Shown here piece after piece: positions 16,125 to 53,363 of a stretch of 64,000 bases of DNA. The first letter of the stretch is position 1. Every line of letters starts with the position of its first letter. Source of the stretch: an uncultured Planctomycetales bacterium (GTDB lineage Bacteria > Omnitrophota > Gorgyraeia > Aquiviventales > Aquiviventaceae); NCBI GenBank assembly GCA_964373175.1, contig CAYJTP010000001.1, positions 41,654 to 105,653 of the forward strand. Direction: 5' to 3'. Below the pieces are notes generated by a model. It saw only the letters and a list, made by a program, of their open reading frames with translations. It did no database searches and was not told the origin of the DNA. The position numbers and the translations under genes were made by a program.

Positions 16125-17310
16125 GGCTGTCAAACCCCTTGCCGGCCCGCAGATAGACAGACAGTCCCGTTCGCCATCGCGTTCGGTGCTGGCTATGGAC
16201 CTGCCGGTAAAGAGCTCCCAGTCGGCGAGCGGTCTCATCCGCATGAAAGTGCTCACGCACCCTCGCTCGACCCGCCTGGCCCAAGGCCTCACATCGAGAG
16301 GGGTCCTTCAACAGCGTGGCAATGGCCTGAGCCAACGCCTGTGCAGAGCCCGGCTCTGTTAAGAGACCCGTGACACCATCTGCAATGACTTCCGGCATGG
16401 GGCCGAGTCGAAACGCCACGCAAGGTTTTCCCGCTGCCATCGCCTCCAACAGCACGAGTGGCAGCCCTTCGCTCAGAGACGGAAAGATGAACAGATCACT
16501 AAGGGCTAGCAGTTCCGGGATATCGCGACGAGTCCCAAGAAATCGGACGTGGGTTTGAAGACCCAGCGCCTCGGTTTGGCGTTCTAATTCCTGGCGGCAG
16601 CATCCGTTCCCAACGATGAGCCAATACAGCTTGGACAGACTCCCCTGGAGAAGGGTGAGCGTCTGAAGGACGAACCGGTGCCCTTTGGGCGGATCCAGCC
16701 TGCCGATGGTGATCAAGATCTTCGACCCCTCCGGAAGGCAGAGCTCTTCCTTCAGCCGACGGACCCGCTCCGAGCCGACGGTCTCAAACAGTTGCGGATC
16801 GATCGCGTTCGGAATCACAGAGCAACGCTCCTCAGGAATCCGAAACCGCCGAACCACGGATTGCTTCACAAAGTCGGAGACCGCCACAAAGTGGGCTACG
16901 CAGGTCCGAGCGGTCAGACGATCGATCCATTCCCGTTTCCCTGAACGTAGGTAAGGATCCGGGCTTTCGTACGCCGAACCCTGGACTGTCGAAATGACTG
17001 GGATTCCCATCGCCCTTGCGACAACGCGGCCATAGCAGTCGGCGCCAAACAACTGGGTGTGCATCGCATCAGGTCGGATCTGACGAATAAGATTACGGAG
17101 TCTCGGAATCGCGTTGACATCCAACAATCCGCGAAGCCCCAACCCGATGACTGGAATGCCATTCTTGAGAAACAGGTCGGCCATCGAGGTATCGGAAAAC
17201 AGATGCACTACCGTGTGGCAACAGTCGTGGTTCAATCGGACAACGTCATTCAAGAGGCGCCGTTCGGCACCACCGATCCCGAGGCTGTCGATCAGGTGGA
17301 GGATCCGCAT
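16117..17310 (-). CDS. glycosyltransferase family 4 (GT-B)
   Basis: Start at MRILHLIDSLGIGGAERR (ATGA overlap with upstream stop). C-terminal FIFPSLSEGLPLVLLEAMAAGKPCVA is the GT4 signature. The track ORF has a 90-aa low-complexity extension. Confidence 0.8.
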   Translation of the reverse strand: MRILHLIDSLGIGGAERRLLNDVVRLNHDCCHTVVHLFSDTSMADLFLKNGIPVIGLGLRGLLDVNAIPRLRNLIRQIRPDAMHTQLFGADCYGRVVARAMGIPVISTVQGSAYESPDPYLRSGKREWIDRLTARTCVAHFVAVSDFVKQSVVRRFRIPEERCSVIPNAIDPQLFETVGSERVRRLKEELCLPEGSKILITIGRLDPPKGHRFVLQTLTLLQGSLSKLYWLIVGNGCCRQELERQTEALGLQTHVRFLGTRRDIPELLALSDLFIFPSLSEGLPLVLLEAMAAGKPCVAFRLGPMPEVIADGVTGLLTEPGSAQALAQAIATLLKDPSRCEALGQAGRARVREHFHADETARRLGALYRQVHSQHRTRWRTGLSVYLRAGKGFDSHE

Positions 17311-19397
17311 CAGGGAAGCCACTTCGGCGGGTGGTGATGAAACCGCATGAGGGCCTCCAGACTCAGGTCCAGCCAGCGGAACGACCGCAGGGATCTCCGG
17401 ATGAAGTACAGGAACGCCAACCACCGAACCCACTCCGGGTCCACGCCGATAGTCTTCGCGTAGGTTCGGCATGAAGCCGAAACCCTCTTGCGCCAGTCCG
17501 GCTGCTCCAACCGAAGGACGTTTTGCCACACGTTCCCCCCTGTACGGACTTGGACGGCGTTCAGCCACAGATGGAACCAATCCAAGAACGGCAGTTCCCT
17601 CCGGTCGGATTCTTCCCAGTCAACGATCCCGCAGCGCTGCCCATCCCAAAGAAGATTGCAGGGATGGTAATCGCCATGCTGGCACACCGCAAACAATGGG
17701 CTCGTCGGAAGACCTTGGAGCTCCTGATCGAGGTTGGCGAGGACGCGGTAGACGTCCCGGTACGGCCATGTATAACGGGCCGGTTCGAGCCTCTCTTGAA
17801 GCTGAAGAGCTGCTCCCAACAGTTTGGCTCTGACAACGGATGGGCTCAACGGCACACGCGTCGCCGCATGGAACGCCCGGAGCCATTCCTGCGCGGCTTC
17901 CAAGGCACCATCAAGCTCACCACCCTGGAGATGTTCCACCGGAATACCCGCCATCTTTCGGTACACGAACACAGCCGTCTCGCCATGCACGATGGAATCC
18001 ACAGGGACGGGGAGTGGGCGGGAGAGTGGAGGAGGAAGTTCCTGACGCAATTGTTGTACGATCTCAAACTCACGACCTGCTCGGATCCGGTCCTCCGAGA
18101 CCGTCACCCATTTCAGGACGAATGACTGCCCACTCGATGTTGTCTCCCCTAGCCAGCGCATGGCCCCCTCGAGATTCGGAAGTGGGCGGAAGGAAACAGA
18201 CAGATGAGTGGGTTTGGACTGACCGCACCACGCCTCCCAGCGACCGCTCACGACTTCCTTGAGATGCTCCACGTCGTGTCCATGGGGATTCGCGAGCTCC
18301 TGGGGCTTGTGGACTAGCCAACTGGTGTGAGGGATGAGCCAATCCAGTAGTCCCCAGCTGGCCATCTGGATCTTGACCAGGGTCTTGAGGTTCCATGGCT
18401 TTCCCTGGTCCAGCTGACCCAGCCGAGTGGCGAATATCCCACGCTGGTCGGCCGGGATGAGTTCACGGATGTCGTGGTAGGAGGGGCGCGGCCAGAAGAG
18501 CCGGGGCTCTTGGAATCCCGCCTGTGCGAGGAGCCGACGATACCCCCATGTGGAGTGCGTGACGGTCCGATACGGTTTTCCCGTCCGCCACCTGGAATAG
18601 AGTGTCGCCACCCGGTAGGGCAGCACAGAGATATACCGAAGCTTTGTGTGAGGATCCGGTGCCCCTCGAAAGGCGTCAACGCTGAACCGATTCTCGATGC
18701 CTAAATACAGCCAGCCGCCTGGCCGCAAGATCCGTTGTGCTTCGCGCAACATGGCTAGCTGTTTCTCACGCGGATGCCCGTGACTCGCCAGAGGAACCCA
18801 CTCCAACACCCCATTCATGATCACCAGGTCAAAGGAATTCGACGTGAAGGGAAGCAGCCGTTCGTTTCCCCCACACAAGACCTTCACCTGCGCCTCGAGT
18901 CCCTGTTGGCGAATACGCAACGCCGTAAAGAGCGCTCGCTCAAAGGAAAGATCCATGCTCACGACGTGGGCGCCCCTCTGGGCCCACGCGGTCGTCAGCG
19001 TCCCGCAGCCACAGCCCAGATCGAGAACCCTCCATGGCTGCGGCAGCGGAGGCAGGTGGATGGCCCAGGCGATCCGCGTCGGATTCACCAACAGCTTATA
19101 GAGACCGGGACGATTCCACTCTCTGGCCAGCCGTTCTGCCTCTTCCAACCATCGCTCACTCCGGAGCGCCTCGAGCAGCTTCTGGGTCTCTTCCCGACCC
19201 AGCCGTTCCCAAAAGATCGGCGAGCGTGTGAGGATTGGGATGCCCTCCCGCACAGGCCACTCCAACCGGCACCGAGCGCATCGCAGAGCATCTTCCTGCT
19301 GAACCTCCGCTCCACAATTCGGACACGTGAGGTCTTGCTCTCCGCCGCCACGCGTGGCCGATCCTGCAAGAGGCTTGGCGAGCTCGATACCTGCCAC
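17310..19397 (-). CDS. tridomain protein: Trm112-like zinc ribbon + class I SAM methyltransferase + protein-kinase/APH-like kinase domain (WbdD-like O-polysaccharide chain terminator candidate)
   Basis: 695 aa. CPNCG...CARCRLEWPVREGIPIL ribbon; VLDLGCGCGTLT motif I; C-terminal HGDYHPCNLLWD (HGDxxxxN catalytic loop) and DWE (DFG-like) as in eukaryotic-like/aminoglycoside kinases. This is the same domain order as E. coli O9a WbdD. Confidence 0.7.
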   Translation of the reverse strand: MAGIELAKPLAGSATRGGGEQDLTCPNCGAEVQQEDALRCARCRLEWPVREGIPILTRSPIFWERLGREETQKLLEALRSERWLEEAERLAREWNRPGLYKLLVNPTRIAWAIHLPPLPQPWRVLDLGCGCGTLTTAWAQRGAHVVSMDLSFERALFTALRIRQQGLEAQVKVLCGGNERLLPFTSNSFDLVIMNGVLEWVPLASHGHPREKQLAMLREAQRILRPGGWLYLGIENRFSVDAFRGAPDPHTKLRYISVLPYRVATLYSRWRTGKPYRTVTHSTWGYRRLLAQAGFQEPRLFWPRPSYHDIRELIPADQRGIFATRLGQLDQGKPWNLKTLVKIQMASWGLLDWLIPHTSWLVHKPQELANPHGHDVEHLKEVVSGRWEAWCGQSKPTHLSVSFRPLPNLEGAMRWLGETTSSGQSFVLKWVTVSEDRIRAGREFEIVQQLRQELPPPLSRPLPVPVDSIVHGETAVFVYRKMAGIPVEHLQGGELDGALEAAQEWLRAFHAATRVPLSPSVVRAKLLGAALQLQERLEPARYTWPYRDVYRVLANLDQELQGLPTSPLFAVCQHGDYHPCNLLWDGQRCGIVDWEESDRRELPFLDWFHLWLNAVQVRTGGNVWQNVLRLEQPDWRKRVSASCRTYAKTIGVDPEWVRWLAFLYFIRRSLRSFRWLDLSLEALMRFHHHPPKWLP

Positions 19398-20679: not shown

Positions 20680-20681
20680 CC

Positions 20682-25218: not shown

Positions 25219-26036
25219 GTCAGGTGTTCTCGGATGAAGGACAGGTGACGCCACGCTGCCCGGATCGGATCGTTTCCCGGAGGGGTCTCCAGGATTAACG
25301 GACCCTGATATCCGACGTCTTGCAATGCCGCGAAGCAGGCTGGAAAATCGACCGCCCCGGATCCCAGCTCCACATTCGGTCCACCCAACGGCCGATCCTT
25401 GATATGGACACCGCCAATGAGGGGGCCCAGGAGTCGGATGTCAGCCGGGATGTCAAATCCTAACGCCGCGGCGTTGCCCACGTCATAGTAGGCCTTCACC
25501 AGTGGATGATCAGCCTGCCGAATCACGTCAAGGATCTGCCACGCCGGCTGATCCATCTCCAGCGCGAACTCCACTTCGGCGGCTTCAGCTTCGGGCAGGG
25601 CTTCTCGCAGGCACGCGAGGAAGGCTGACCTGTCGTCTGCCGTCTGCAGCGCCGCGTCCTCCAGGATCGGAATCCCAATGCGCTTCGCACCGACAGACTG
25701 GGCCGCCTGGATCAGGTCGTGAAGCAGGTGCAGACGCTGGGTGCGTGCGTTGGGCTGCCCACGAAAGAAGGGCTGGGTCTTGAAGACGTCGGCGCAGATC
25801 GAGGAGAGGGGCAGACCATCCCGACGCGCCAATGCCTTCAGCCTGTTTCTCCCCTCGTGAGACAGCAACGGGTTCGATGCGACGTCCTCTGCTGTCACCA
25901 AGAGCTCGAACGCCGTAAACCCAATCTCCGTCGCCCACGCAAACTCCTGTTCCCATGTCTGCACCGGGAAGATCTGAAGCCGACCGTCCATCGATCGCGA
26001 CAGACGTCCCTGGAGGATTCCAATGCGGTTCGTCAT
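25203..26036 (-). CDS. sugar-phosphate isomerase/epimerase (xylose-isomerase-like TIM barrel)
   Basis: 277 aa. TIM-barrel AP-endonuclease-2/xylose-isomerase-like pattern (GFTAFELL..., HIKD..., ILETP). Confidence 0.65.
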   Translation of the reverse strand: MTNRIGILQGRLSRSMDGRLQIFPVQTWEQEFAWATEIGFTAFELLVTAEDVASNPLLSHEGRNRLKALARRDGLPLSSICADVFKTQPFFRGQPNARTQRLHLLHDLIQAAQSVGAKRIGIPILEDAALQTADDRSAFLACLREALPEAEAAEVEFALEMDQPAWQILDVIRQADHPLVKAYYDVGNAAALGFDIPADIRLLGPLIGGVHIKDRPLGGPNVELGSGAVDFPACFAALQDVGYQGPLILETPPGNDPIRAAWRHLSFIREHLTCLRS

Positions 26037-27487
26037 GTCTCAGTGCGCGCTGGGACCAGGGTGACTGACCGACCATGCAAGGGGATCACATAGTCGCGCC
26101 GCGCTCGAGCCAACTGCACCTCGACCCTCCTCCGGAAGTTGGCTCCTGCCTCGTTCAGTTCACCAACAATGGCGTCGCTCACCTGGCGCACGGTCTGATC
26201 ATCAAAGTATTTGTCCGTGGTTTCCCATTTCCCATCGGGAACGATCCGCCATCGATGGAACGACCAATCTCGATGTACGCCGAGTTGCATCCGTACCCGT
26301 GCCAGGACGTTCGAGGAACGCGTCGACCTGGGCCACTGCACACCATAGGCCAATGCTTTGCATCGCTGCAGTCGAACCCTCTGACCGTCTCGGCCGTTGA
26401 GCGATGCCAAGATGCACGCGGCGACTCGGTCATGAGCACGACCATCGACCCGATAGAACCAATCTTGAATCACGTCGGTGAGGCGCTGTCGAATGTGCGT
26501 GGGAACCTCAAAGCCACCTCGCAAGATCTCCCTCAGGTTCCCCTTCAGCTCCTCCTCTGAACCACACGGAATGCTGACCGCCTCGACCGAGGGGATCTTC
26601 ACCGCATCAGGCATCCATGCTGGCGACAGGGTTGGCACACCGACCATGCCGGCTTCCACCCCTGTGGTACAGTTCTTCTGAATGAGGGCTTTGGACCGGA
26701 GGATCCAACCTTCCACCGTTCCTGACTTCACTAAGTGCAAGTTCGGCAGAGGCTCCAGCAGTTCCTGATACCTGTCAGTGCGTTCAAATGGATGAGGTCG
26801 ATAGACAAACGTCGCCGTGGGGAATTCCCGGGCCAGGCCGTTCGACAACGCGGTCAAGCCTCTCATCAACTGCCGCTCGCGCTGCTGAACGCCCAACAGT
26901 TCCTGCTGATCCTGCCCAAACCACTTGACGGTTGCCGCGACAACGCTTTCCGGAGTGAGCGCGATCGGGTTGGCAAGCGGAAAGTTTCCATTGATGAGCA
27001 CCAGGGGCTGTCCGTATCGCTCGACATACCCGGACGCTTCCAGAGCTGCCCGACGCCATGGCTCCACATAGAAATCCGATCGGGGCGTCCCGGTGAGCCT
27101 GACCTGTCGTGACGAATACCTGCCGCTGCGAAGGACGTAGTCGGCCAACAGCAGCCCCCAGCTACAGAAAAACTCCGCCTGGTCTCGCAACGTCTGGTCG
27201 TCACCCATCGCCTCGGCATACATCTCGATGCTCGGGAGCACCCCTCCCTCTTTGTCCAAGACACCAAACGGAATGCCCGCTGACACGAGGGCCCGGACAA
27301 AGGGTTCGTTCGTTTTATGCATCTGATTCACCAGCACAAAGTCTGGGGCCAAGGCGGGGATTTCGCTCCATCGCAGGTTGTATGGGACGAGATGTGACAC
27401 GATCCCTTCTTGGCACAGCCGATGGGCCACCAACACTGCGCTGGGGATGTCCCGGTAGGGACTATCCACGATTAACGCGACCCGCAT
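26033..27487 (-). CDS. surface-carbohydrate biosynthesis protein, putative GT-B-fold (CMP-sugar-dependent?) transferase
   Basis: 484 aa, soluble. Same tentative family as 19399..20679 (paired hydrophobic beta-alpha segments, TGVEAGMVGVPTL). Assignment is tentative. Confidence 0.5.
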   Translation of the reverse strand: MRVALIVDSPYRDIPSAVLVAHRLCQEGIVSHLVPYNLRWSEIPALAPDFVLVNQMHKTNEPFVRALVSAGIPFGVLDKEGGVLPSIEMYAEAMGDDQTLRDQAEFFCSWGLLLADYVLRSGRYSSRQVRLTGTPRSDFYVEPWRRAALEASGYVERYGQPLVLINGNFPLANPIALTPESVVAATVKWFGQDQQELLGVQQRERQLMRGLTALSNGLAREFPTATFVYRPHPFERTDRYQELLEPLPNLHLVKSGTVEGWILRSKALIQKNCTTGVEAGMVGVPTLSPAWMPDAVKIPSVEAVSIPCGSEEELKGNLREILRGGFEVPTHIRQRLTDVIQDWFYRVDGRAHDRVAACILASLNGRDGQRVRLQRCKALAYGVQWPRSTRSSNVLARVRMQLGVHRDWSFHRWRIVPDGKWETTDKYFDDQTVRQVSDAIVGELNEAGANFRRRVEVQLARARRDYVIPLHGRSVTLVPARTET

Positions 27488-38834: not shown

Positions 38835-40023
38835 ACGCATCCAGCACCTTGGTGACCGCTTCGATGCAATCTTCCACGTCCGCATCAGTCATGCTGTGAA
38901 ACAGCGGCAAGCTGATCAGGCGACGATAGGCCTCCTCGGCCACGGGGTATTCCCCTCCTCGGTAACCAAACCGGTGCCGATAGTACGGGTGCAGATGGAC
39001 CGGGATGTAGTGGACATTGACCCCCAGGCCTTCGGCCCGCAGCGCTTTGAAGATCTCCGCCCTCTCCACGTGCAGCTTCGACAAGTCCAGTTGAACAGGG
39101 TACAGATGCCACGCCGGTGTGGCATCGGGTCGCACCACCGGTGGCATCACCCCTCCCAGGTCCTTGAAGACCCTGGTATAGCGCATCGCAATCTGCTGAC
39201 GGCGCTCCAGATTTCGATCAAGCCGCTTGAGTTGGGATAACCCCAGCGCACATCCGATATCTGAGAGGCGATAGTTATACCCCAACGCGACCATCTCATA
39301 GTACCAGTCACCGCCCGCTTCACGCTCGTGGACGTCGTGCTCGATCCCCTGGTTGCGGAAGATGCGCAGTTGACGGGCAAATTCCGCGTTGTCCGTCGTC
39401 ACCATGCCCCCCTCTCCCGTCGTGATATGCTTCACGGGATGAAAACTGAAGACGGTCATATGGCTGACCGACCCGACCCGGCGACCTCGAAGCTCTGCGC
39501 CCAGCGCATGACAGGCATCCTCAATCACGACCAGTCCCTGTCGTTCGGCCAACGCGACGAGCGCATCGAGATCGGCCGGATGCCCCGCGTAGTCCACCGG
39601 GAGGATGGCTTTTGTCCTGGCTGTGACCGCCTGCGCGACACGGTTCGGATCAAGGTTCAACGTATCGGGGCAGACGTCGCAGAACACGGGCAACGCCCCT
39701 TGGTACAACAGGGCATTGGCCGTCGCGCAGAACGTCAGCGGGGTGGTCACCCCTTCATCCCCAGGCCCCAACCCAGCCGCAAAGACCGCTCCATGAAGCG
39801 CGGCAGTGCCGGAAGAGAAGGCCACAGCGTAACGACTCCCGACACGAGCCGCGAGGGCCGCTTCGAACTGCTCGACGACCGGACCGGTCGTCAACCAGTC
39901 CGACCGCAGGACTTCCAGGACCCCCTGGAGATCCTCCTCGAGCACCTCATGGTGCCCATACGGCAACCGTCTCTGGCGGACCGGTTGTCCCCCGTCGACC
40001 GCCAAGGTAGGTAGCGCCTTCAT
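38824..40023 (-). CDS. pseC: DegT-family aminotransferase (PseC-like UDP-4-amino-4,6-dideoxy-N-acetyl-beta-L-altrosamine transaminase)
   Basis: VLEEDLQGVLEVLRSDWLTTGP..., and FSFHPVKHITTGEGG (PLP lysine). Immediately downstream of the PseB-like gene. ATG at 40023; the preceding GTG at 40026 is used by the track. Confidence 0.8.
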   Translation of the reverse strand: MKALPTLAVDGGQPVRQRRLPYGHHEVLEEDLQGVLEVLRSDWLTTGPVVEQFEAALAARVGSRYAVAFSSGTAALHGAVFAAGLGPGDEGVTTPLTFCATANALLYQGALPVFCDVCPDTLNLDPNRVAQAVTARTKAILPVDYAGHPADLDALVALAERQGLVVIEDACHALGAELRGRRVGSVSHMTVFSFHPVKHITTGEGGMVTTDNAEFARQLRIFRNQGIEHDVHEREAGGDWYYEMVALGYNYRLSDIGCALGLSQLKRLDRNLERRQQIAMRYTRVFKDLGGVMPPVVRPDATPAWHLYPVQLDLSKLHVERAEIFKALRAEGLGVNVHYIPVHLHPYYRHRFGYRGGEYPVAEEAYRRLISLPLFHSMTDADVEDCIEAVTKVLDAYGQ

Positions 40024-40033
40024 CACCGGGGAC

Positions 40034-41014
40034 TCACCTCGAAAACTGCCCGATCATCTGATGCAACCGCTCCCCGCTCAGCCAATCCGTATTGGTGTTG
40101 CTAGCGTAGCGGGTGCCGGGCTTCATCGGCCGGCCTCCCGACCAGCTCTGTCCGTCCCACCAAGGATGAGCGGGCTGGATGATGTACATATCATCAAATT
40201 CGAGGGCCTGGGCGACTTCGTCCTCGGAAATGAGCACCTCATGGAGTTTCTCTCCTGGCCGGATGCCAATGAGCTCCACTTGAGCGTCCGGTGCAATGGC
40301 TTTCGCTAGGTCCATGATCGCCATGCTGGGAATTTTTGGCACAAACACCTCCCCGCCCTGCATCTGCTGGACACAGCGAATCACAAAGTGTACCCCTTGC
40401 TCGAGCGTGATCCAAAAGCGTGTCATCCGAGAGTCGGTAATCGGCAGCCGGCCGTTCTCGCGTTTGCCCAGGAACAGGGGGATCACGCTGCCCCGGCTGC
40501 CCACGACATTGCCATAGCGCACACAACTAAAACGCGGGCCCTCCGCACCGGAGTACGCATTGCTGTGAATACAGAGCTTCTCCGCACACAGTTTTGTCGC
40601 GCCATACAGGTTGACCGGATTGACCGCTTTATCAGAGCTGACCAGCATGACCCTCTTGACCCCCTGATCGATCGCGGCCTCCACGACGTTCCGCGAGCCC
40701 ATCACATTGGTCATGATCGCTTCGATGGGATTGTACTCACAGGTTGGGATCTGCTTTAAGGCTGCGGCATGCACGACGATCTCGACACCGTTGAAGGCCC
40801 GTTCCAGTCGTTCCCGGTCCCTGACATCCCCGATGAAATACCGAAGACAGGGATGGTCAAAGCCGGATTGCCGCATCTCATGCTGTTTGAGCTCATCCCG
40901 ACTGAAGACGATGAGTTTCTTGGGCTGATAATCCCGCAGGACGACTTCTACGAATTTCCGCCCAAACGATCCAGTGCCACCTGTGACGAGAATCGTTCGA
41001 CCGTTAAGCTCCAT
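40034..41014 (-). CDS. pseB: UDP-N-acetylglucosamine 4,6-dehydratase (inverting), PseB/FlaA1/CapD-like
   Basis: NGRTILVTGGTGSFGRKFVE..., YGATKLCAEKL. Short SDR-like protein of the Polysacc_synt_2 type. ATG at 41014 gives the typical 7-residue lead-in before ILVTGG; ATG at 41035 is also possible. Confidence 0.85.
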   Translation of the reverse strand: MELNGRTILVTGGTGSFGRKFVEVVLRDYQPKKLIVFSRDELKQHEMRQSGFDHPCLRYFIGDVRDRERLERAFNGVEIVVHAAALKQIPTCEYNPIEAIMTNVMGSRNVVEAAIDQGVKRVMLVSSDKAVNPVNLYGATKLCAEKLCIHSNAYSGAEGPRFSCVRYGNVVGSRGSVIPLFLGKRENGRLPITDSRMTRFWITLEQGVHFVIRCVQQMQGGEVFVPKIPSMAIMDLAKAIAPDAQVELIGIRPGEKLHEVLISEDEVAQALEFDDMYIIQPAHPWWDGQSWSGGRPMKPGTRYASNTNTDWLSGERLHQMIGQFSR

Positions 41015-42323
41015 TGGACGCTCGGCTCCCTCCATCGTTTGGAATCAGTTGGACGGCCACCCTTCTGCCATCGGGATAGACCCACTCGTAAGGAACGAAG
41101 AAGGGTGCGGCGCTCCGGGCCTTGATATCCGCCTGTTCACCCCTCAAACCAAAATCGGCCAGGGGGCCCACGACATGAAATGCTGCGACCTCTTGCGATT
41201 CGAGCAAGGTACGCTTGCTGTTCGCCTGCCGAACACACATCTTCACCGTGTAGAATTGGGGGAGCAGGGGAACAGCGCGGAAACGACAACCGATCACGTC
41301 GTCCCCCTCCATGGCATTCAGAAGCTGTCCATCGAGAGTCATGTTCGCAGCAAAGATTTCACCGAATCCGCTGTTAATCGAGATCCAGACGTAGGGTTTC
41401 TCCACCCTCTGCCGCGCAAAGATGTGCACGGCAATATCGATGTCGTCTCCCGGATGAAAGATCGTCGTTGGCTGACCCTTCGCGTTCCTCAACACGACCC
41501 GCCTCACTTGGATGACTCCCAGGCCTTGGGTCGCGAGTGAACCTTCGGTGACAGCGGAAAGATACGCCGCCACCGTCTCCTCCGGGGAGCCGACGTCCCG
41601 CAGTTGTCCGCCATCCAGCCAGATCGTCCGATCACAGAGACTCTCGATGGCCCCCATGTTGTGGCTGACGAAGAGGACGGTCCGACCCTCGCTGGCGACG
41701 TTGCCCATCCTTCCCAGACACTTCTTCTGGAACGCCGCGTCTCCTACAGCCAGCACTTCATCAACCAAGAGGATCTCCGGCTCCAAGTGGGCGGCGACCG
41801 CGAAAGCCAGTCGCACGTACATGCCGCTCGAGTAATGCTTCACCGGGGTATCCAGGAACCTCTCCACCTCGGAAAAGGCGACAATCGCATCGAATTTGCG
41901 CGTGATCTCCGCTGTTCTCATCCCCAAGATGGCGCCGTTCAAGAACACGTTCTCCCGACCCGTCAATTCTGGGTGGAACCCAGTCCCCACCTCCAACAAC
42001 GACCCCACTCGCCCCCGGACCGCTGCGAATCCCTCCGTGGGTTCTGTGATGCGGGAGAGGAGTTTCAGCAACGTGGTCTTGCCTGCTCCGTTGCGGCCGA
42101 TCACCCCCATCACCTCGCCCGGCCTGACCTCGAAGGAGACATCCTTCAGGGCCCAGATCATCCCACTGTCCGAGGCTCGGGAACAGGAAGGCGATCTTCT
42201 CAAGCGTCGAAAGGGAGCGTTCCAGGCCTCCGTCAAGGTGTCTCGAAGCGTGCGGTAGCGCTCCGGCTGACCGATGCGGTAGCGCTTGCTGAGATTCTTG
42301 ACGTCGATGGCGACATGGGTCAT
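41004..42323 (-). CDS. wzt: ABC transporter ATP-binding protein Wzt (O-polysaccharide/teichoic-type exporter) with C-terminal carbohydrate-binding-like extension
   Basis: 439 aa. Walker A GRNGAGKTT, signature YSSGMYVRLAF, Walker B LLVDE, then a ~180-aa extra C-terminal beta-rich domain. Confidence 0.85.
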   Translation of the reverse strand: MTHVAIDVKNLSKRYRIGQPERYRTLRDTLTEAWNAPFRRLRRSPSCSRASDSGMIWALKDVSFEVRPGEVMGVIGRNGAGKTTLLKLLSRITEPTEGFAAVRGRVGSLLEVGTGFHPELTGRENVFLNGAILGMRTAEITRKFDAIVAFSEVERFLDTPVKHYSSGMYVRLAFAVAAHLEPEILLVDEVLAVGDAAFQKKCLGRMGNVASEGRTVLFVSHNMGAIESLCDRTIWLDGGQLRDVGSPEETVAAYLSAVTEGSLATQGLGVIQVRRVVLRNAKGQPTTIFHPGDDIDIAVHIFARQRVEKPYVWISINSGFGEIFAANMTLDGQLLNAMEGDDVIGCRFRAVPLLPQFYTVKMCVRQANSKRTLLESQEVAAFHVVGPLADFGLRGEQADIKARSAAPFFVPYEWVYPDGRRVAVQLIPNDGGSRASNGA

Positions 42324-42326
42324 GGC

Positions 42327-43214
42327 CTACACCACATCAGCAAACGTCTTCTCCATGCGACGAAAGTACACGACCCCACCTGCGAGGAGCACGGCCACCG
42401 CGAACGCCGATACGAGAACCAGTGGTCCAGGGCTTCCCGTCTTGCCCAGCAGGGCCCAACGAAATCCTTCCACGACACCGGCCATCGGATTCAGCCCATA
42501 CAGAATGCGCCAGGATTCCGGAACGAGACTGCTTGGATACGCGATCGGCGTGGCAAACAGCCAGACCTGGGCCAGAAACGGAATCGTATAGCGGACGTCC
42601 CGGTACTTCACATTCATCGCCGACAGCCAGAGACCCACGGAGAGAGCCGTGGCAATGGCCAATCCGATGAACAGGGGCGTCAACCAGATCGCCGCTGTAG
42701 GAACGATCCCGTAATAGAGCATCATGCCGATCAAGACCACGAAGGCAACGCCAAAATCCACCAACCCGGCCAGAACCGCAGCGAGGGGGATGATCAGGCG
42801 CGGAAAATAGATCTTCTTGATCAGGTGTTGGTTGGCGATCAGGCTGTTTCCCGACTCCGTGAGCGCATGGGCAAAGAGCTGCCACGGGACCAGGGCCGCG
42901 TACGCGAAAATCGGGTACGGGATTCCATCAGATGGCACCTTGGCCAATCGACCAAAAAAGATGCTGAAGACGACCATCGTGAGAAACGGCTGCAGGATGG
43001 CCCACGCCGCTCCGAGCGCCGTCTGTTTATAGCGCACCTTGATATCCCGCCAGATCAGGAAATACAACAACTCGCGGTATTCCCAGAGCTCCTTCAGCTG
43101 GAGGGAGACGAAGCCCTTGGTCGGCTGAATCACCACGACGGGGACCGGCACCGATGGCACGGAAAGGAGATCCGCCTCCGGCAACGGGTGTGCAATGTCC
43201 GTGATGTGGGACAT
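42327..43214 (-). CDS. wzm: ABC-2 type transporter permease Wzm
   Basis: 295 aa, 6 TM helices, ABC2_membrane pattern (LWEYRELLYFLIWRDIKVRYKQTALG). Confidence 0.85.
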   Translation of the reverse strand: MSHITDIAHPLPEADLLSVPSVPVPVVVIQPTKGFVSLQLKELWEYRELLYFLIWRDIKVRYKQTALGAAWAILQPFLTMVVFSIFFGRLAKVPSDGIPYPIFAYAALVPWQLFAHALTESGNSLIANQHLIKKIYFPRLIIPLAAVLAGLVDFGVAFVVLIGMMLYYGIVPTAAIWLTPLFIGLAIATALSVGLWLSAMNVKYRDVRYTIPFLAQVWLFATPIAYPSSLVPESWRILYGLNPMAGVVEGFRWALLGKTGSPGPLVLVSAFAVAVLLAGGVVYFRRMEKTFADVV

Positions 43215-44078
43215 CTACCGTGGTGGGCTCTTCGACCGCCGATTCGATCCAAGGGGCAACAGCGGTTTCTCGTCTACTCGGTTCAGACGATACCGTATGG
43301 CCTGGCTCACATACTGCCGAAACCGAATATACCACTGCTTCAGGTCAGCAGGAGCGCGATCCCCGTAGTTCAGCTGTTGGACGGAAGGCTGGGTGTGATC
43401 GATTCCCACCCCTCCTTCCGTGGTCACGGTATAGAGCAGCGACATCATGGCGCTGCCATCACAGCGTCCGAAACAGGCGTACATGGTGGGGGAGGCTACC
43501 CCAAGCAGGCGATCCTCTAGAGCCAGCCAATAGGTCCCAAACGGGGCGATCTCTGCGCGACCGGCCTGGACCACGTGACCTCGAGGGTCGAAGATTTCAT
43601 ACTGATAAGACGCCACGCGCGCATAGTCGTTCTTCGTACTGATATTCATCAGGACGAGACCGCAGGATTGGACGGTCGAATCGACAAAGTGTACGGAAAA
43701 GCCGTGGTAGCGATGGGGTCTCCCTGAATGGTTGATCGAGGAGGGAGGGGTATACACCACATGGGTAAATCCCCCGCCTCTGAGATAGTAGTGATACCGG
43801 TCTTTCTTGTAGGGCCGGTCGCTCAGGAGGATGGTTTCAACCAAGCCCTTCTGTCCGTCTCTGATGGAGGGTTGCAAGAACGCGTGATCCAGTTCAATGG
43901 AGGCAACACCCTGGAGAGGCTCCCCGTCATTCCACACGTGTTCCTTGAAGACCCGACCCTGCTCATCACGAGCCCGAAGAAGGACCATGTATCGCTGCCC
44001 TTCATCACACCGCAAGACGGTTCTCATCCCCTCATGGATCTGGAAGTTGAATGGGAGCCAATCCTTGGAAATTTCCAT
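43215..44078 (-). CDS. hypothetical protein, no recognisable family
   Basis: 287 aa, soluble, no motifs recognised. Tightly coupled (1-nt gap) to wzm. Confidence 0.5.
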   Translation of the reverse strand: MEISKDWLPFNFQIHEGMRTVLRCDEGQRYMVLLRARDEQGRVFKEHVWNDGEPLQGVASIELDHAFLQPSIRDGQKGLVETILLSDRPYKKDRYHYYLRGGGFTHVVYTPPSSINHSGRPHRYHGFSVHFVDSTVQSCGLVLMNISTKNDYARVASYQYEIFDPRGHVVQAGRAEIAPFGTYWLALEDRLLGVASPTMYACFGRCDGSAMMSLLYTVTTEGGVGIDHTQPSVQQLNYGDRAPADLKQWYIRFRQYVSQAIRYRLNRVDEKPLLPLGSNRRSKSPPR

Positions 44079-44080
44079 CC

Positions 44081-44881
44081 TTAGAGGTGGTGGAGATTAA
44101 AATCGTCTGTCGTCTGGGTCAGGAGCCACCCTTTCCCCTTCGGACCTCGGACGAAGTACAGGTAGCGCGACGACGTCTTGAATTCCACCTCAAACAGCTC
44201 GCCCAGGTCGACCCAGAGACTGGGAACGAACGCGACGTCTTGGGTCACGTACCTCCATGGGGCTGACCCTTCTTTCAGGCCGAACGTATAGGTCAACCGT
44301 GTTGGCCTGTGCCGGTACGCATCCCAAGGGGCACACACGATGGCGGTCACGCGCGCTCCGTCCTTGGGCACCCAAAAGATCCGTTCCCGCGCATAGTTAT
44401 TGCGCGAGGCACTGGAGTGCACACAATCAAGCGTCCGCCGGATACGCCTGCTCTGATAACATGCGTAAAAGATGGGTGCCAGCCGGTGATGGTCCACGCA
44501 AAAACCTGCTGGATACCCCTCACGCTCCGTCCAGGCAAAACACACACCGCGGAGATCCGACTTGTTCAGCAGGGGTTCGAGCGACAGGCACTGGCTCTGA
44601 TGGTAGGGGAGGCGGACCCGAATCAGGTGGGCCGAACCCTTATCGAGGACCATGGCGTGAAACAGCATGGGTTCCCGAAATGTCTCATCGCAGACTGCAT
44701 GGCAGTAGGTGCATAACAGATGGGTGTCAAACCCATCGGCACACAACACGGGGAGACAGGAGCTGCCTCGGGCCACGTACCGACTCACCGCCCCAAAGAG
44801 ATCGCTTCCCAGTGATTCGACCTGGATTCGATCCGCGTCGTTGAGCTCCGTTGATCGCTGCATCGAGATGGTGGTCATCTT
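44081..44881 (-). CDS. hypothetical protein (Cys/His-rich), no recognisable family
   Basis: Start at MTTISMQRS, 1 nt after the upstream stop. Contains CxxC pairs (LLCTYCHAVCDETF). The track ORF extends 46 codons further. Confidence 0.45.
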   Translation of the reverse strand, partial: KMTTISMQRSTELNDADRIQVESLGSDLFGAVSRYVARGSSCLPVLCADGFDTHLLCTYCHAVCDETFREPMLFHAMVLDKGSAHLIRVRLPYHQSQCLSLEPLLNKSDLRGVCFAWTEREGYPAGFCVDHHRLAPIFYACYQSRRIRRTLDCVHSSASRNNYARERIFWVPKDGARVTAIVCAPWDAYRHRPTRLTYTFGLKEGSAPWRYVTQDVAFVPSLWVDLGELFEVEFKTSSRYLYFVRGPKGKGWLLTQTTDDFNLHHL

Positions 44882-45840
44882 TTCACGGCACCTCTGCTGA
44901 ACGCTTTTGCCCACGCGACACACGCCTTCGCGCGTTGGGGCCCGAGAACCCAATCGAGGCTCCTTCGTGCCCTGTGCTTCAACGTCGAACTGTAGAAATA
45001 GGTGATCTGATACCTCCAAAAAACCAGCCGCAGAGCTCTGGCTTTGGCCACAGCATGGTTCGAGCCCTGCAGGTTCAGTGCAGGTCTTTCGACCGGAGGG
45101 GCGGCCTTCGCCAACACCCGTAAGCCTCTTCCTTCATCCCCCACAACACAAGAAGAAAATCCAACCTGTCCCAGCAGGGACAAAAACGATGGGCGTGTGA
45201 AGAGCCGTAAATGCTGGGCCCCGAGGAACTCGCCCAGGTGGTGGCGAGGCTTCCAGGCATTGGGGACTTCAAGATACAACCGTCCGTCCGGTCTCAAGAG
45301 AGTCTTCACCCGCGTCAGAAAGGCGCAGGGGTCAGAGACATGCTCCAACACCCGCAAGGCGGCCACCAGATCAAATCTCCCTGGAGGCAGGGACGCCTCC
45401 TCGAAAGTCCCTCGCCGGATATCCAACCCGTACGCCCGTTGCCCAAACCGGGCAAAGGCGGAGGGCTCGATGCCGCACGTCTCCCATCCCAGCCGATGAA
45501 ATCTCAACAGGAAGGAACCCTCGGAGCAACCAATGTCCAGCACCCTCCCCCTCTGCCTGAGATGGGGAGCCGCCCAGTGAAAATCTTCCTCGGCCTGACG
45601 CCCCTTCCACCACAGGTGCTCCTCACTTGGGGTGTCTTCCGCCCGCAACGTTTCGTAGAGTCGTGTTAACTCCCCAGGCTCCAGTTGCGGCCGAGAGTAC
45701 ACCAATCCGCAGGTCTGACACATCACCTTCACTACGCGGGCCCGTTCCAGCCCCAATCGCTGGAGGTACGCATCCCGGCGCAGCACGTAGACCGGCACCG
45801 CCGCCCAGGAACCACACACAAGACACGGGACGTCCTTCAT
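44875..45840 (-). CDS. SAM-dependent methyltransferase with N-terminal Cys4 zinc-binding domain (Methyltransf_13-like)
   Basis: CLVCGS...CQTCGLVYSRP ribbon; VLDIGCSEGSFLL motif I. Start at the ATG in an ATGA overlap. Confidence 0.75.
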   Translation of the reverse strand: MKDVPCLVCGSWAAVPVYVLRRDAYLQRLGLERARVVKVMCQTCGLVYSRPQLEPGELTRLYETLRAEDTPSEEHLWWKGRQAEEDFHWAAPHLRQRGRVLDIGCSEGSFLLRFHRLGWETCGIEPSAFARFGQRAYGLDIRRGTFEEASLPPGRFDLVAALRVLEHVSDPCAFLTRVKTLLRPDGRLYLEVPNAWKPRHHLGEFLGAQHLRLFTRPSFLSLLGQVGFSSCVVGDEGRGLRVLAKAAPPVERPALNLQGSNHAVAKARALRLVFWRYQITYFYSSTLKHRARRSLDWVLGPQRAKACVAWAKAFSRGAVKR

Positions 45841-46541
45841 CGGCTGTATTCTCCTGAGCCACACAATTGTAGGAGAGCCTGCGCGAGCCTCAATCCATCC
45901 TCGTCATGGAGATCGACCTGGCTACTCACATCCCGGACTGGAACTAACCCGATTCGATCTCCAAGCCGTCTACCAGATCGAACGATGTCGGCTCGAATGG
46001 CGGTCGCCATCCCCGCCAACTCCTTATAGGTAGGTTGCACCTGATGACGCGTATGATCTCCCTCCTCAGGGTGGAGCTGCTCGAGGCTGTTTTCCGAAAA
46101 CCGCCAGAAGCGATGGCGCTCCTCCCGAGCGGCAAAGACCGTATCCAATCCTTCTGTCTGAAGCACCTCGACGACATCGTCGATCAGCCCTGGTGGCCGG
46201 ATCGGATGCGTCACCTCGAGCAAGACCACAATATCCACCGGGTAAGAGTCCTCTTGCTCGAGCCACTGGAGGCAATGTTGGAGGACCTGAATCATCGGCA
46301 CCCCTGCAGCCGCGAGGTGGGGTGGTCGGAAAAAGGGGACCTCCGTCCCGTAACCCCTGGCCACCTCCGCGACCACGGCGCTATCCGTAGAGACGAGAAT
46401 CCGGTCCAGACATGTCGCCTGACGTGCGGCCTCAATCGTGTAGGTGAGCACCGGTTTTCCACACAGCAGGGACTCTGGTGTCATCTGGGCCTCCGGGTCA
46501 CTGCCCCGGAGCGGGATGATCGCTACCGTGTTCAGATGCAT
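45837..46541 (-). CDS. NeuA-family cytidylyltransferase (CMP-ulosonic acid synthetase-like), divergent
   Basis: VAIIPLRGS...GKPVLTYTIEAARQ...ILVSTDS...EVPFFRP follows the CMP-NeuAc synthetase pattern but lacks the GSKG loop. Confidence 0.65.
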   Translation of the reverse strand: MHLNTVAIIPLRGSDPEAQMTPESLLCGKPVLTYTIEAARQATCLDRILVSTDSAVVAEVARGYGTEVPFFRPPHLAAAGVPMIQVLQHCLQWLEQEDSYPVDIVVLLEVTHPIRPPGLIDDVVEVLQTEGLDTVFAAREERHRFWRFSENSLEQLHPEEGDHTRHQVQPTYKELAGMATAIRADIVRSGRRLGDRIGLVPVRDVSSQVDLHDEDGLRLAQALLQLCGSGEYSR

Positions 46542-47920
46542 GATCGCCCTTCCAGCCATCGTGCGAGAAATGCCAGCGTGCGATCAACCGCCCCGCTCTC
46601 CTGTTGGATCAGGCGAGCCCCGGCAGTCCGAATCGCCTGAAGTGGAGCGTGGCCGGTCAGAACGTCAACCGCTCGGCTCGCCAGAGTCATGGGTGAATCC
46701 ACCTCAAGCCCTGGCCAAGCCTCCAACAACTGCGTAGTGGCGGTTCGCCAAAGATTCATATGGGGGCCAAAGAGGGGTGGCACCCCGTGCGCTAATGGCT
46801 CTAGGGGGTTATGGCCCCCTCTCCGTTCATTGATTGGGACAAGACTGGACCCAATAACGGCCACATCGGCCGCACCATAGATCGTCCGGAGCTCCCCAAA
46901 CGTATCCACTACTAACGCGTCGTACCGCCCCAACTCTGGCGTAGGATGTTGGGCCACCGCGGTTCGCGTCATGACCCTGAAGCCATGTTCCCTGACCCGT
47001 CCCACCATTGCGGGAACGTCGTGAAGCCAGCGTGGCGCGATGATCAACCGGCTGCTCGGAAGGCTCGCCCGGATCAGGCTGAAGGCCTCAAGCATGGTTC
47101 CAATTTCTCCTGGAGGCAGGCTCCCAGCAATCATGACGCGATCCTCTTCTCGAAGGCCGAGGCTACCCCGAAGCGCTTGACGCTCCGCTGGAGAGAGTTG
47201 GAGATGGCTCAGATCCCCTTCCAATTTCCCTGTGACGGCCAACCGATCGGTCGGCACCCCCAGCGAACGAAAGGCGTCGTAATCGGCTTCGCTTTGGACC
47301 GCGATGGCATCGAGCGTGCGGTGGACGCCCAAGGCGAGCGAACGTCGCAAACACGGGTTCGCCACGTGCACATTCCGAGTAAGCACGGCGTTCACCAGCA
47401 CCGTTGTCACCCCTCGCCGCTTCGCATGCTTGAGGAGCGTTGGGAAATAGGCATTCGCCACAAACACCAACGCCTTAGGATTCAACCGGCGGACCACGCG
47501 CGAGACTGGAAGTGAGGTATCCCAAGGTGGGAATGCCACCCGCCCTGGACCATACCACTGGCGGAGCAGCCCGTGTGCATCGTACGAATCGGTGGAGAAA
47601 TAACACGGGTCTCCTCCCGCTTCCAATTGGCGAATCAGGGACTGCGCCATGATCACCTCACCGCCAGAATTCATATGGATCCACAGCGGTTTGGTCCCAT
47701 CATACTGTTCGAGCTCTGCCGGCAACCACCCCCACTGATCCCAAAACCGACGGACCATCAGATCGTGCACAGCGCGACGAGGGTGCAGCAGCACGCGCTT
47801 CGTCAAGGTAATTGGGAAATACGCATACGCCAATGCTGCATAGGGCATCTGATAGCGAGCCCACGTGGTCCAGCGCTCCTGGGCGCTGCGGAACTCACCG
47901 GTCGAGGGATTCCCCATCAC
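46532..47920 (-). CDS. 3-deoxy-D-manno-octulosonic-acid transferase-like glycosyltransferase (GT30, KdtA/WaaA family)
   Basis: 462 aa. N-terminal LWIHMNSGGEV (WaaA HxxSxGE-like) and a C-terminal GT-B domain (VVDTFGELRTIYGAADVAVIGSSL). Confidence 0.7.
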   Translation of the reverse strand: MMGNPSTGEFRSAQERWTTWARYQMPYAALAYAYFPITLTKRVLLHPRRAVHDLMVRRFWDQWGWLPAELEQYDGTKPLWIHMNSGGEVIMAQSLIRQLEAGGDPCYFSTDSYDAHGLLRQWYGPGRVAFPPWDTSLPVSRVVRRLNPKALVFVANAYFPTLLKHAKRRGVTTVLVNAVLTRNVHVANPCLRRSLALGVHRTLDAIAVQSEADYDAFRSLGVPTDRLAVTGKLEGDLSHLQLSPAERQALRGSLGLREEDRVMIAGSLPPGEIGTMLEAFSLIRASLPSSRLIIAPRWLHDVPAMVGRVREHGFRVMTRTAVAQHPTPELGRYDALVVDTFGELRTIYGAADVAVIGSSLVPINERRGGHNPLEPLAHGVPPLFGPHMNLWRTATTQLLEAWPGLEVDSPMTLASRAVDVLTGHAPLQAIRTAGARLIQQESGAVDRTLAFLARWLEGRSCI

Positions 47921-49698
47921 GTCCGCAAGATGTATTCGACCAACCGGAACGGAAAGTCATCCTTCACGTGCAGGAGTTCAAGCCTAGCCCGTTCAAACAT
48001 CGATAACCAGCGCGCCGTCGTGGTTGGCAAGCCCTGCCACGTCAGGGGATGGATGATGTACTGGTAAAACAGCGGATGGATGCGGTCCGGAAACGGCAGT
48101 GCCTTAACCTCTTCATCCGACAGGCGGTTGAATTCCCCGACAAAGATATACCGCCCGGGGAACTGCCGCTTGAGCCCCGCAAAGAGCTGGACGACCGGCT
48201 CTTCGCCATCTCGCAGGAACTCATGGAAGGACATGATGCCGTTGAAGGCACCAACCTCCTTGACCTCGCTGGCAAACGTCTCTGGTCGGGTGAAATCGCC
48301 CTTGACCAGCCGAATGCGGTCAGTCAATCCGGCCTCTGCTACACGGCGCCGGGCCTCCTCAAGCGCCTCCTCTGAGATGTCGATCCCGATACCCCGAAGA
48401 GCCGGATCCAACCGACAGAAGGCAATGAGCGTTTCGCCAGATCCGCAGCCGAGATCAGCGAACGTCCGCACACCCCGCTTGGTCAGCTCTGACACGACCC
48501 AGGGATAGTTTGATTTGCCCGTGTAGTAACTGCCGCGGGCCAGCCAATCCCCTCGGCGGACGAAACCCACGCCGTAGCGCTTTTCCTCGCGTAGTGCGGG
48601 CACGAGTTCGTAGAGCAGACACGCATAGGCGCCGACCGCTCCAAAGGACATGGCCAGCACGGGATCGGTGAAGAGCCACTCGCCGCGGTCGGTGAGGGCA
48701 AATCGGTCCCCTTCTTTCTGCAGCACGCGGTCGGCAAAGGCGAGGAAGTGCAGCACGCCATCCAAGAGGTACGTGTTGAGTCCACATTCCGCGGCCAATT
48801 CTTTGACGGTCTTGGGACCGCTGCGGCGCAGCACCTCGAAGACACCGGTCTCGTGGAGAGCAAACAGGATAAAGGCCCTTGCGTACCCATTCCGAATGTT
48901 CTGAGACCACGTTTTCACATCGTCCCCAAGCCAACCCTCTTTCAGATCAGTGCCGCCGGCGCCATTGCCAGACAGTAGCGGGGCAGCGGGTGCCTCCGGA
49001 TAACGCAACAGCTGTTCCGCCAGCCAGAAATCCAAGGGGGTATGGATATCGATTGACGTGCGAAAATCATTCGTTTCCACAATGTCCACGCGCGAGCCCA
49101 CACGCTGGCCTGCTCGGATGAGCGACGCTCTGGTGGCGCAGGCCACGCCGGTATCCTCCCGGTAGAGGTACGCCTTGCGGCTCTGCCGGGAGGTATAGGT
49201 CGCTAATTCTGGCGCAAGCCGCTGGAAACCTTCCGGCGTCCGATGCCAGTAGTTTTTGTGCGTCTTGTACCCTGAGAAGACGGTTTCCAACTCGGGATGA
49301 GCCGCAAGCCGATGGACGCACTCCCGGATTATGTCCGGCGTCCGGAACAGGTCCGTCGTCTGCAGGTACACGACGATGTCAAACGTGATTCCCCGCAGTT
49401 GTTCGTACGTGACGAGGGCGTGCTGGAGCATGGGCTCGGCAGGTACAGAGTCCTCAGCGAGCTCGCGCGGACGAAGAAACGGGACCTCAGCTCCAGCGTC
49501 GCGGGCGATGCGGGCGACACGCTCATCCTCGGTGCTCACGAGCACGACATCGCACACCCCGGAGACCTTCGCGTGCTCGATGGTATGGACTAGGAGGGGT
49601 TTGCCGCCGATCGGCAGCAGGTTCTTACCCGGCAAGCCCTTTGAACCGGCCCGTGCCCCGATGATCGCGATTGTCCTTGGCAGCGCGGCTGGCATCAC
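47917..49698 (-). CDS. fusion: NeuA-family cytidylyltransferase + class I SAM O-methyltransferase (with dimerisation/wHTH-like linker)
   Basis: 593 aa. IAIIGARAGSKGLPGKNLLPIGGKPLLVHTIEHA...VPFLRP (CMP-sugar synthetase). C-terminal FADLGCGSGETL motif I, preceded by a winged-helix-like segment as in plant-type O-MTs. Confidence 0.75.
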   Translation of the reverse strand: MMPAALPRTIAIIGARAGSKGLPGKNLLPIGGKPLLVHTIEHAKVSGVCDVVLVSTEDERVARIARDAGAEVPFLRPRELAEDSVPAEPMLQHALVTYEQLRGITFDIVVYLQTTDLFRTPDIIRECVHRLAAHPELETVFSGYKTHKNYWHRTPEGFQRLAPELATYTSRQSRKAYLYREDTGVACATRASLIRAGQRVGSRVDIVETNDFRTSIDIHTPLDFWLAEQLLRYPEAPAAPLLSGNGAGGTDLKEGWLGDDVKTWSQNIRNGYARAFILFALHETGVFEVLRRSGPKTVKELAAECGLNTYLLDGVLHFLAFADRVLQKEGDRFALTDRGEWLFTDPVLAMSFGAVGAYACLLYELVPALREEKRYGVGFVRRGDWLARGSYYTGKSNYPWVVSELTKRGVRTFADLGCGSGETLIAFCRLDPALRGIGIDISEEALEEARRRVAEAGLTDRIRLVKGDFTRPETFASEVKEVGAFNGIMSFHEFLRDGEEPVVQLFAGLKRQFPGRYIFVGEFNRLSDEEVKALPFPDRIHPLFYQYIIHPLTWQGLPTTTARWLSMFERARLELLHVKDDFPFRLVEYILRT

Positions 49699-53325: not shown

Positions 53326-53363
53326 GGGAAGGTTGTGCTCTAGGTCACTGGGTGAGATGTCTT

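Follow-up and report, generated by a model that had tools for sequence, protein, structure and literature searches.

The ASRAH superfamily was defined by De Souza, Iyer and Aravind around the structures of TM1070 and ASRT (PMC2739507). Its domain is an eight-stranded sandwich whose ligand cleft has strand 2 and the dimer interface as its lining, and its hallmarks are a tryptophan (W7) with which strand 1 begins and an asparagine (N32) with which strand 2 ends; the SHEshChhN residues of the ASRT-like family are replaced in other ASRAH families too (PMC2739507). ASRAH domains come in dyads or tetrads, assemble into tetramers, are found in sugar-metabolism operons and are predicted to bind sugars or small molecules (PMC2739507). 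Among their relatives are actinobacterial surface lipoproteins with two ASRAH domains and a genomic link to a glycosyltransferase, for which a role in binding that enzyme's polysaccharide product or in recruiting the transferase itself has been proposed (PMC2739507). The subject here is a pair of adjacent open reading frames, ORF3 and ORF4, which may provide a two-gene version of this fold. They lie beside the O-antigen transporter genes wzm and wzt in a stretch of 64,000 nucleotides from an uncultured Planctomycetales bacterium (GenBank assembly GCA_964373175.1, contig CAYJTP010000001.1, positions 41,654 to 105,653), referred to below as the window. The explanation favoured here, tentatively and at somewhat less than an even chance, is that the pair forms a cytoplasmic, ASRAH-like module which binds a sugar or sugar nucleotide in the biosynthesis or modification of an ulosonic-acid glycan, and is not an accessory of export.

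ORF3 and ORF4 belong to a very long minus-strand operon of surface-glycan genes, in which an initial annotation of the window had singled out an interval of four tightly coupled ORFs:

41004..42323, minus strand: wzt, O-antigen ABC transporter ATP-binding subunit, 439 aa (Pfam ABC_tran 3.3e-21, Wzt_C 4e-09)
41169..41528, minus strand: segment of wzt for the Wzt_C carbohydrate-binding domain, residues 266-385 (Pfam PF14524)
42327..43214, minus strand: wzm, ABC-2 type permease, 295 aa (Pfam ABC2_membrane 1.4e-18)
43215..44078, minus strand: ORF3, 287 aa, orphan, with two predicted eight-stranded beta-sandwich halves (~1-110 and ~120-230) and an Arg/Tyr-rich C-terminal helix (244-267)
44081..44878, minus strand: ORF4, 265 aa, orphan, Cys/His-rich, with two predicted beta-sandwich domains (~15-125 and ~130-265)

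All four are present on the minus strand as annotated, the sole correction being a 3-nt shift in the start of ORF4: its ATG lies at 44878, not 44881, which gives a protein of 265 aa and an ATGA overlap with the TGA of the methyltransferase gene upstream. The tight, translational coupling of the pair to wzm is likewise upheld, with gaps of 2 nt between ORF4 and ORF3 and 0 nt between ORF3 and wzm, while 3 nt separate wzm from wzt. A consensus scan across 40000-46000 found no promoter-like or terminator-like sites above chance, and Rfam found no RNA families in the whole window. Wzt, wzm and ORF3 face an antisense ORF of 638 aa on the plus strand (41604-43520), which most probably arises as a by-product of the G+C-rich coding sequence opposite it.

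Neither ORF3 nor ORF4 has a Pfam or NCBIfam match. A Pfam scan of all members of the two families (16 + 8) at E-values up to 10 returned noise only, and profile searches of all PDB sequences with both families came back empty. The initial annotation had described the two neighbours of wzm as lacking recognisable motifs, and had named ordinary annotated enzymes as what they might instead prove to be; the former description holds, and both are unannotated orphans. They are genuine genes and not chance ORFs, as follows from the ratio of non-synonymous to synonymous substitution (dN/dS) against their closest relatives, those of locus L005. This stands at 0.17 for ORF3 and 0.33 for ORF4, indicating purifying selection, and the flanking enzymes give similar values.

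Both families are extremely rare. Among 5.8 billion non-redundant proteins, 15 homologues of ORF4 were found and four of ORF3, the latter number rising to six with a profile; overall, relatives number about 10 for ORF3 and 17 for ORF4. When 1.84 billion cluster representatives were searched exhaustively with HMMER and a profile of the ORF4 family, one genuine full-length representative and a 58-aa fragment came out, and no relatives of ORF4 were found among GTDB genomes, taken one per species. Two sets of apparent relatives were rejected. P0023, a giant RTX/PKD-like repeat protein of 2370 aa, reached an E-value of 1.5e-20 against the ORF4 profile through an artefact of repeat summation: it carries 11 near-identical PKD-like repeats, each of which scores 6-12 bits and by itself has an E-value far above 1, and illustrates how whole-sequence E-values mislead for repeat proteins. 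The metagenomic 'relatives' L009-L011 proved to be motif-only matches (IVCAPWDAY) in a methyltransferase-like ORF, picked by the search pattern.

ORF3 and ORF4 are most likely soluble proteins of the cytoplasm. No hydrophobic stretch long enough for a transmembrane segment occurs in either (the maximum 19-residue hydropathy is about 1.07), the N-termini do not have the look of signal peptides, judged by eye only, and both proteins are basic (isoelectric points of 8.3-9.0). The predicted C-terminal helix of ORF3 is Arg-rich and moderately amphipathic, with a hydrophobic moment of up to 0.55. Of the 265 residues of ORF4, 11 are Cys and 11 are His, in keeping with the earlier description of this protein as Cys/His-rich. 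Its invariant or near-invariant residues are D51, T52, C59, H60, C113, H154, C182, D186, H263 and H264, and its conserved motifs are DTHLLFTYCH, GVCFAW, IVCAPLDAY, GPKGKGW and, at the C-terminus, DFNLHHL. In ORF3 the invariant polar residues are H15, H130, H228, D64, E81, R123, S147 and T148. The two proteins show no similarity to one another by BLASTP, and a full-length profile-profile comparison gives an E-value of 0.12. Their C-terminal halves can be aligned collinearly across 84 columns, with the Gly-rich basic loops FGRCDGS and GPKGKG set opposite each other (hhalign, best E 0.017), and 2 of 120 column shuffles equalled this score. These figures are suggestive of paralogy, with statistics that are borderline.

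The comparative context of the pair was assembled from DNA around the homologues in Logan, NCBI, ENA and JGI assemblies. The contexts counted are the window, L001, L002, L003/L004, L005, L006, L007, L008, L014 and L015; a further JGI contig, known without its DNA, has an unannotated 266-aa ORF at the expected place. The identity of the ORF3-like gene was checked by tblastn and by hidden Markov model search. In all 11 contexts ORF4 is followed directly by ORF3, with gaps ranging from -4 to about +150 nt. The link to wzm and wzt, by contrast, is not conserved. By tblastn, homologues of these two genes accompany the pair in L005 only, and L005 is the window's own locus in a close, 90%-identical relative, with flanking proteins that are 89-99% identical. 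In L001 and L003/L004 a Wzx-type flippase (Polysacc_synt_3) is found a gene or two after the pair, and no exporter gene occurs in the available sequence of L002, L006, L007, L008, L014 or L015. In L008 the pair comes after asparagine-synthase-like genes, and the cut ORFs upstream of it in L014 and L015 are similar to the L008 gene.

These contexts bear directly on the role first suggested for the pair. From its position, the initial annotation had proposed that ORF3 and ORF4 act as Wzm/Wzt accessories in export, in chain-length control or in the recognition of terminal residues, and had named co-occurrence with wzm and wzt across genomes as a way of checking this. The pair does indeed lie immediately upstream of wzm in both the window and L005, with gaps of 0-2 nt; a carbohydrate-binding-like beta-sandwich would suit glycan recognition, and the amphipathic, Arg-rich C-terminal helix of ORF3 could touch the membrane. 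However, co-occurrence is not conserved, adjacency to wzm and wzt being confined to one lineage, while elsewhere Wzx flippases or no exporter are found near the pair. Wzm/Wzt systems with a carbohydrate-binding domain are widespread, whereas the ORF3 and ORF4 families are vanishingly rare, and the pair is too rare for a general accessory of such systems because it occurs fewer than 20 times among the 5.8 billion proteins. The proposal is weakened further by the two proteins considered next, Wzt itself and a putative chain terminator, and is the weakest of the explanations weighed here, being very improbable.

By its sequence, Wzt is an ordinary, already known O-antigen ABC transporter ATPase with a carbohydrate-binding domain, and this part of the interval holds nothing new. 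ABC_tran covers residues 59-190 and is followed by a C-terminal extension of ~180 aa, within which residues 266-385 match the Pfam domain Wzt_C (PF14524) with 37.0 bits against a curated cut-off of 30.4. Matches to the NCBIfam models for Wzt/RfbE and TagH fall below the model cut-offs. Residues 55-364 align to the 404-aa chains of the solved full-length WzmWzt structures 8dku and 7k2t (E 3.5e-67), an alignment that reaches from the nucleotide-binding domain through most of the C-terminal one. An ABC nucleotide-binding domain, Wzt_C above its threshold and an adjacent ABC-2 permease are thus all in place, and the tail that had been called carbohydrate-binding-like is the established Wzt_C domain. 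The putative terminator lies elsewhere in the operon:

17310..19397, minus strand: WbdD-like methyltransferase and APH-type kinase protein, 695 aa (Pfam Methyltransf_11 at residues 125-232, APH at 419-598)

A methyltransferase joined to a kinase is the architecture of WbdD, the chain terminator and length regulator of the E. coli O9a O-antigen. A phmmer search with the 695-aa protein at E-values up to 0.001 found generic methyltransferase chains alone, none of them named WbdD. By analogy of domain architecture, in which its likeness to WbdD consists, the protein is likely to be a candidate chain terminator or length regulator of the Wzm/Wzt pathway, and Wzt probably recognises the terminal modification that this putative enzyme would install. 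Given both proteins in one operon, termination and the recognition of terminal residues would already be provided for without ORF3 and ORF4.

A comparison of the window with L005 supplies a further observation on Wzt. Wzm is 93% identical between the two loci, and the nucleotide-binding domain of Wzt is 92.6% identical with a synonymous difference of 0.15. The C-terminal half of Wzt (residues 231-439; 41004-41630 in the window, compared with the Wzt gene at 11756-13066 in L005) is, by contrast, only 38% identical, with a saturated synonymous difference of 0.76. L005 also has two genes specific to it in this comparison, one for a TylF-like methyltransferase (8456-9175) and one for a second methyltransferase after wzt (13063-13914). 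It looks as if the carbohydrate-binding segment of Wzt has been swapped together with terminal-modification genes, and such a replacement would fit the known logic of Wzt-terminator specificity.

If the exporter varies from locus to locus, what recurs around the pair is a set of biosynthetic genes, represented in the window by the following features:

44875..45864, minus strand: Zn-ribbon and class-I S-adenosylmethionine methyltransferase, 329 aa (Pfam Methyltransf_23 7.2e-23)
46532..47920, minus strand: glycosyltransferase resembling transferases of 3-deoxy-D-manno-oct-2-ulosonic acid (Kdo), Glycos_transf_N, 462 aa (Pfam 1.6e-26)
47917..49698, minus strand: fusion of a cytidine monophosphate (CMP)-ulosonate synthetase-like domain (CTP_transf_3) with an O-methyltransferase, 593 aa (Pfam, NCBIfam)
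26033..27487, minus strand: unannotated 484-aa protein, possibly GT-B-like, of a ~460-aa family; clusters with proteins from pair-bearing loci

The commonest immediate neighbour is the Zn-ribbon methyltransferase, recognised by its N-terminal Cys pairs, which flanks the pair directly in the window, L005, L001, L007 and probably L014 (4-5 loci); in L014 similar Cys pairs are seen at the N-terminus of a cut ORF downstream of the pair. CTP_transf_3 is fused or adjacent to an O-methyltransferase in five loci (window, L001, L002, L005 and L006), at 64-98% identity and as split genes in L001; a scan of GTDB species representatives with this fusion gave two distant matches only. The Kdo-transferase-like Glycos_transf_N protein is found in four loci (window, L001, L005 and L006), at 50-99% identity. 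The ~460-aa family is present in five: besides the window copy at 26033-27487, at 3760-5115 in L001, 1528-2925 in L002, 3-836 in L003 and 1-1056 in L004, and 4292-5683 in L007, and its gene directly precedes ORF4 in L002 and L003/L004. Its matches, of GT-B type, are weak only, to the UDP-GlcNAc 2-epimerase 6vlb (E 0.005) and to Capsule_synth and Glyphos_transf (E 0.15).

All contexts of the pair are glycan or ulosonic-acid biosynthesis clusters, and in the window the operon includes the following genes:

21614-22510, 29003-30061 and 52480-53517: two full NeuB-family synthases and a DAHP-synthase/KdsA-like gene
24469-25254, 30096-32093, 45837-46559 and 47917-49698: CTP_transf_3 genes, at least four

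From this gene content, it seems that a single glycan is supplied with several different ulosonic acids. From the recurrent partners, together with the NeuB, DAHP-synthase and CTP_transf_3 genes of the window, the pair appears to track ulosonic-acid glycan biosynthesis and modification and not the ABC export route.

Evidence on the fold comes from AlphaFold2 models built with the family alignments. The model of ORF4 is usable, with a predicted local distance difference test score (pLDDT) of 78 and a predicted template modelling score of 0.76. Both models are all-beta with two sandwich-like halves each, ORF3 having 8+8 strands and then the long C-terminal helix. With two predicted sandwich domains per protein and the two proteins encoded together in 11 of 11 contexts, the pair would comprise four such domains in total. 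In fold searches, which returned binding modules and structural proteins, the closest structures were TM1070 (1nc7) and ASRT (2ii7). For the ORF4 model, Foldseek gave a probability of 1.0 and a target TM-score of 0.6 for 1nc7 only; its other matches were two-domain proteins superposed at a root-mean-square deviation of about 19 A. An attempt to place ORF3 and ORF4 as Wzt_C-type modules yielded no match to PF14524 or to the fold of the Wzt carbohydrate-binding domain. At the level of the models, then, both proteins present the eight-stranded beta-sandwich with TM1070 topology by which ASRAH domains are recognised, and that they work like an ASRAH domain in terms of fold is supported by these predictions. 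Some of the sequence hallmarks may also be visible in ORF3, as placed by predicted strands and not by structure-based alignment: an invariant tryptophan, W7, stands where the first predicted strand begins, Asp or Asn follows strand 30-37, and the invariant N145 ends the second strand of the C-terminal half. The SHEshChhN ligand signature is absent from the alignments of both ORF3 and ORF4. Membership of the ASRAH family is unproven, because the two proteins fall short of it in sequence and only one domain per protein is demonstrably aligned.

The same results bear on the main rival of a binding role, namely that ORF3 and/or ORF4 are new beta-sandwich enzymes acting on an ulosonic-acid sugar or glycan as an epimerase, dehydratase, transferase or hydrolase, possibly in a metal-dependent manner through His, Cys and Asp. 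The dense invariant polar residues of both proteins and the GPKGKG loop of ORF4 would suit such enzymes, as would the place of the pair within biosynthetic operons beside methyltransferases, cytidylyltransferases and glycosyltransferases. However, the fold searches, while returning binding modules and structural proteins, gave no enzyme family of the architecture of ORF3 and ORF4, such as a mutarotase or a cupin epimerase, and Pfam and NCBIfam recognised no cofactor-binding motif. TM1070 and ASRT, as the closest structures, are moreover regarded as binders or sensors, not as enzymes (PMC2739507). A catalytic role is considered unlikely on balance.

Several points weigh against the sugar-binding, ASRAH-like explanation itself. 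The ORF3 model is weak (pLDDT 57.9), and beta-sandwich folds match promiscuously. No family member matches PF07100 in Pfam at E-values up to 10, and 1nc7 and 2ii7 were not found by the profile searches of the PDB. The ORF4 alignment shows no equivalent of the Trp or Asn hallmarks of ASRAH domains, and the signal of paralogy between ORF3 and ORF4 is a weak one. Invariant polar residues (His, Cys, Asp, Arg, Ser and Thr) are numerous in the pair and would suit catalysis no less than binding. Finally, most of the contexts are short metagenomic contigs, so that a more distant exporter is possible in several loci.

According to the favoured explanation, ORF3 and ORF4 would assemble into a hetero-oligomer with four ASRAH-like domains, mimicking the tetramer of ASRT and TM1070. 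The complex would bind an ulosonic-acid sugar, its CMP-activated form or the growing end of the glycan, and the Gly-rich basic loops and invariant His residues of the pair would suit a carboxylate or a phosphate. It may then serve as a substrate-binding, specificity or regulatory subunit, accessory rather than catalytic, for the enzymes with which it co-occurs: the Zn-ribbon methyltransferase, the CMP-ulosonate-synthetase-methyltransferase fusion, the Kdo-transferase-like glycosyltransferase and the ~460-aa GT-B-like protein. Its place beside wzm and wzt would be an accident of operon order. A bolder version, possible but doubtful, is that an obligate heteromeric complex of ORF4 and ORF3, with four ASRAH-like domains, is a hitherto unrecognised component in the assembly of ulosonic-acid glycans (Kdo-like or nonulosonic), either as a non-catalytic, substrate-selecting subunit needed by a methyltransferase or glycosyltransferase or as a new beta-sandwich enzyme.

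The pair could also be an ASRT-style intracellular sensor of a pathway intermediate, which would switch neighbouring enzymes allosterically and stand outside both chemistry and the handing over of substrate. The fold match to TM1070 and ASRT is consistent with this, ASRAH proteins that stand alone in sugar operons have been proposed to act as sensors (PMC2739507), and the neighbouring enzymes vary as they would around a generic regulator of a shared intermediate. Yet strict co-transcription in long biosynthetic operons and the presence of two distinct, strongly conserved subunits suggest a stoichiometric partner, and the sensor role of ASRT is itself a prediction. On present data a sensor is indistinguishable from the sugar-binding module favoured here, and is rated as distinctly unlikely.

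Beyond the recurrent partners, the cluster contains a number of unusual genes. A 579-aa protein (49695-51434, minus strand) fuses a partial, C-terminal NeuB-like domain (residues 181-246, corresponding to profile positions 171-236) to a GT2 glycosyltransferase, an architecture also found in L005; this NeuB remnant may be non-catalytic and serve in sugar binding. In the nonulosonic-acid part of the cluster, 30096-32093 (minus strand) encodes an unusual fusion of 665 aa between a CTP_transf_3 cytidylyltransferase and a class-III aminotransferase. Two proteins, one of 435 aa (19399-20706, minus strand) and one of 386 aa (36643-37803, minus strand), have no Pfam match at the thresholds used; the second, which lies beside HisH/HisF-like genes, we take by eye to resemble an N-acetyl-sugar amidotransferase.

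The ORF4/ORF3 pair is among the few components of a large surface-glycan operon that are unexplained by any database. The models suggest that it is a new and very rare two-gene form of the TM1070/ASRT-like sugar-binding beta-sandwich, and the comparative context corrects the assignment of an export accessory by adjacency while linking the pair to modified ulosonic-acid pathways in uncultured bacteria. Should a heteromeric complex in ulosonic-acid glycan assembly be confirmed, it would for the first time give the poorly understood TM1070/ASRT fold a concrete biochemical role and a ligand. The fold would then stand in a defined pathway with only a few ligands to consider (Kdo-like or nonulosonic acids, free or as CMP esters), making the prediction of sugar sensing directly testable. 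The general impact is limited because the families are extremely rare.

A number of parallels and differences can be drawn with the described systems. As in the WzmWzt transporter of 8dku and 7k2t, Wzt of the window combines a nucleotide-binding domain with Wzt_C, has Wzm adjoining and shares its operon with a terminator-like enzyme. ORF3 and ORF4 differ from the terminator WbdD in having no kinase domain, no methyltransferase domain and no coiled-coil ruler. With the actinobacterial ASRAH lipoproteins the pair has in common a predicted tandem arrangement and the link to a glycosyltransferase; those proteins are secreted and carry a lipobox, whereas ORF3 and ORF4 are without a hydrophobic segment or, judged by eye, an obvious signal peptide, and show no sequence similarity to them. 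TM1070 (1nc7) and ASRT (2ii7; PF07100/DUF1362) are the closest comparison. Here the pair departs from the described proteins in lacking both detectable sequence similarity and SHEshChhN, in its two predicted domains per protein, with the Arg/Tyr helix at the C-terminus of ORF3 and the terminal HH motif of ORF4 as additions, and in consisting of two different subunits which are always encoded together. The context differs also, being sugar catabolism or uptake for TM1070 and ASRT and the biosynthesis of surface glycans or ulosonic acids for the pair. Despite this, the predicted eight-stranded sandwich, the probable intracellular location and the setting in sugar operons are shared, an arrangement of domains in dyads or tetrads may be so as well, and ORF3 appears to have in addition the strand-1 Trp and an Asn that closes a second strand.

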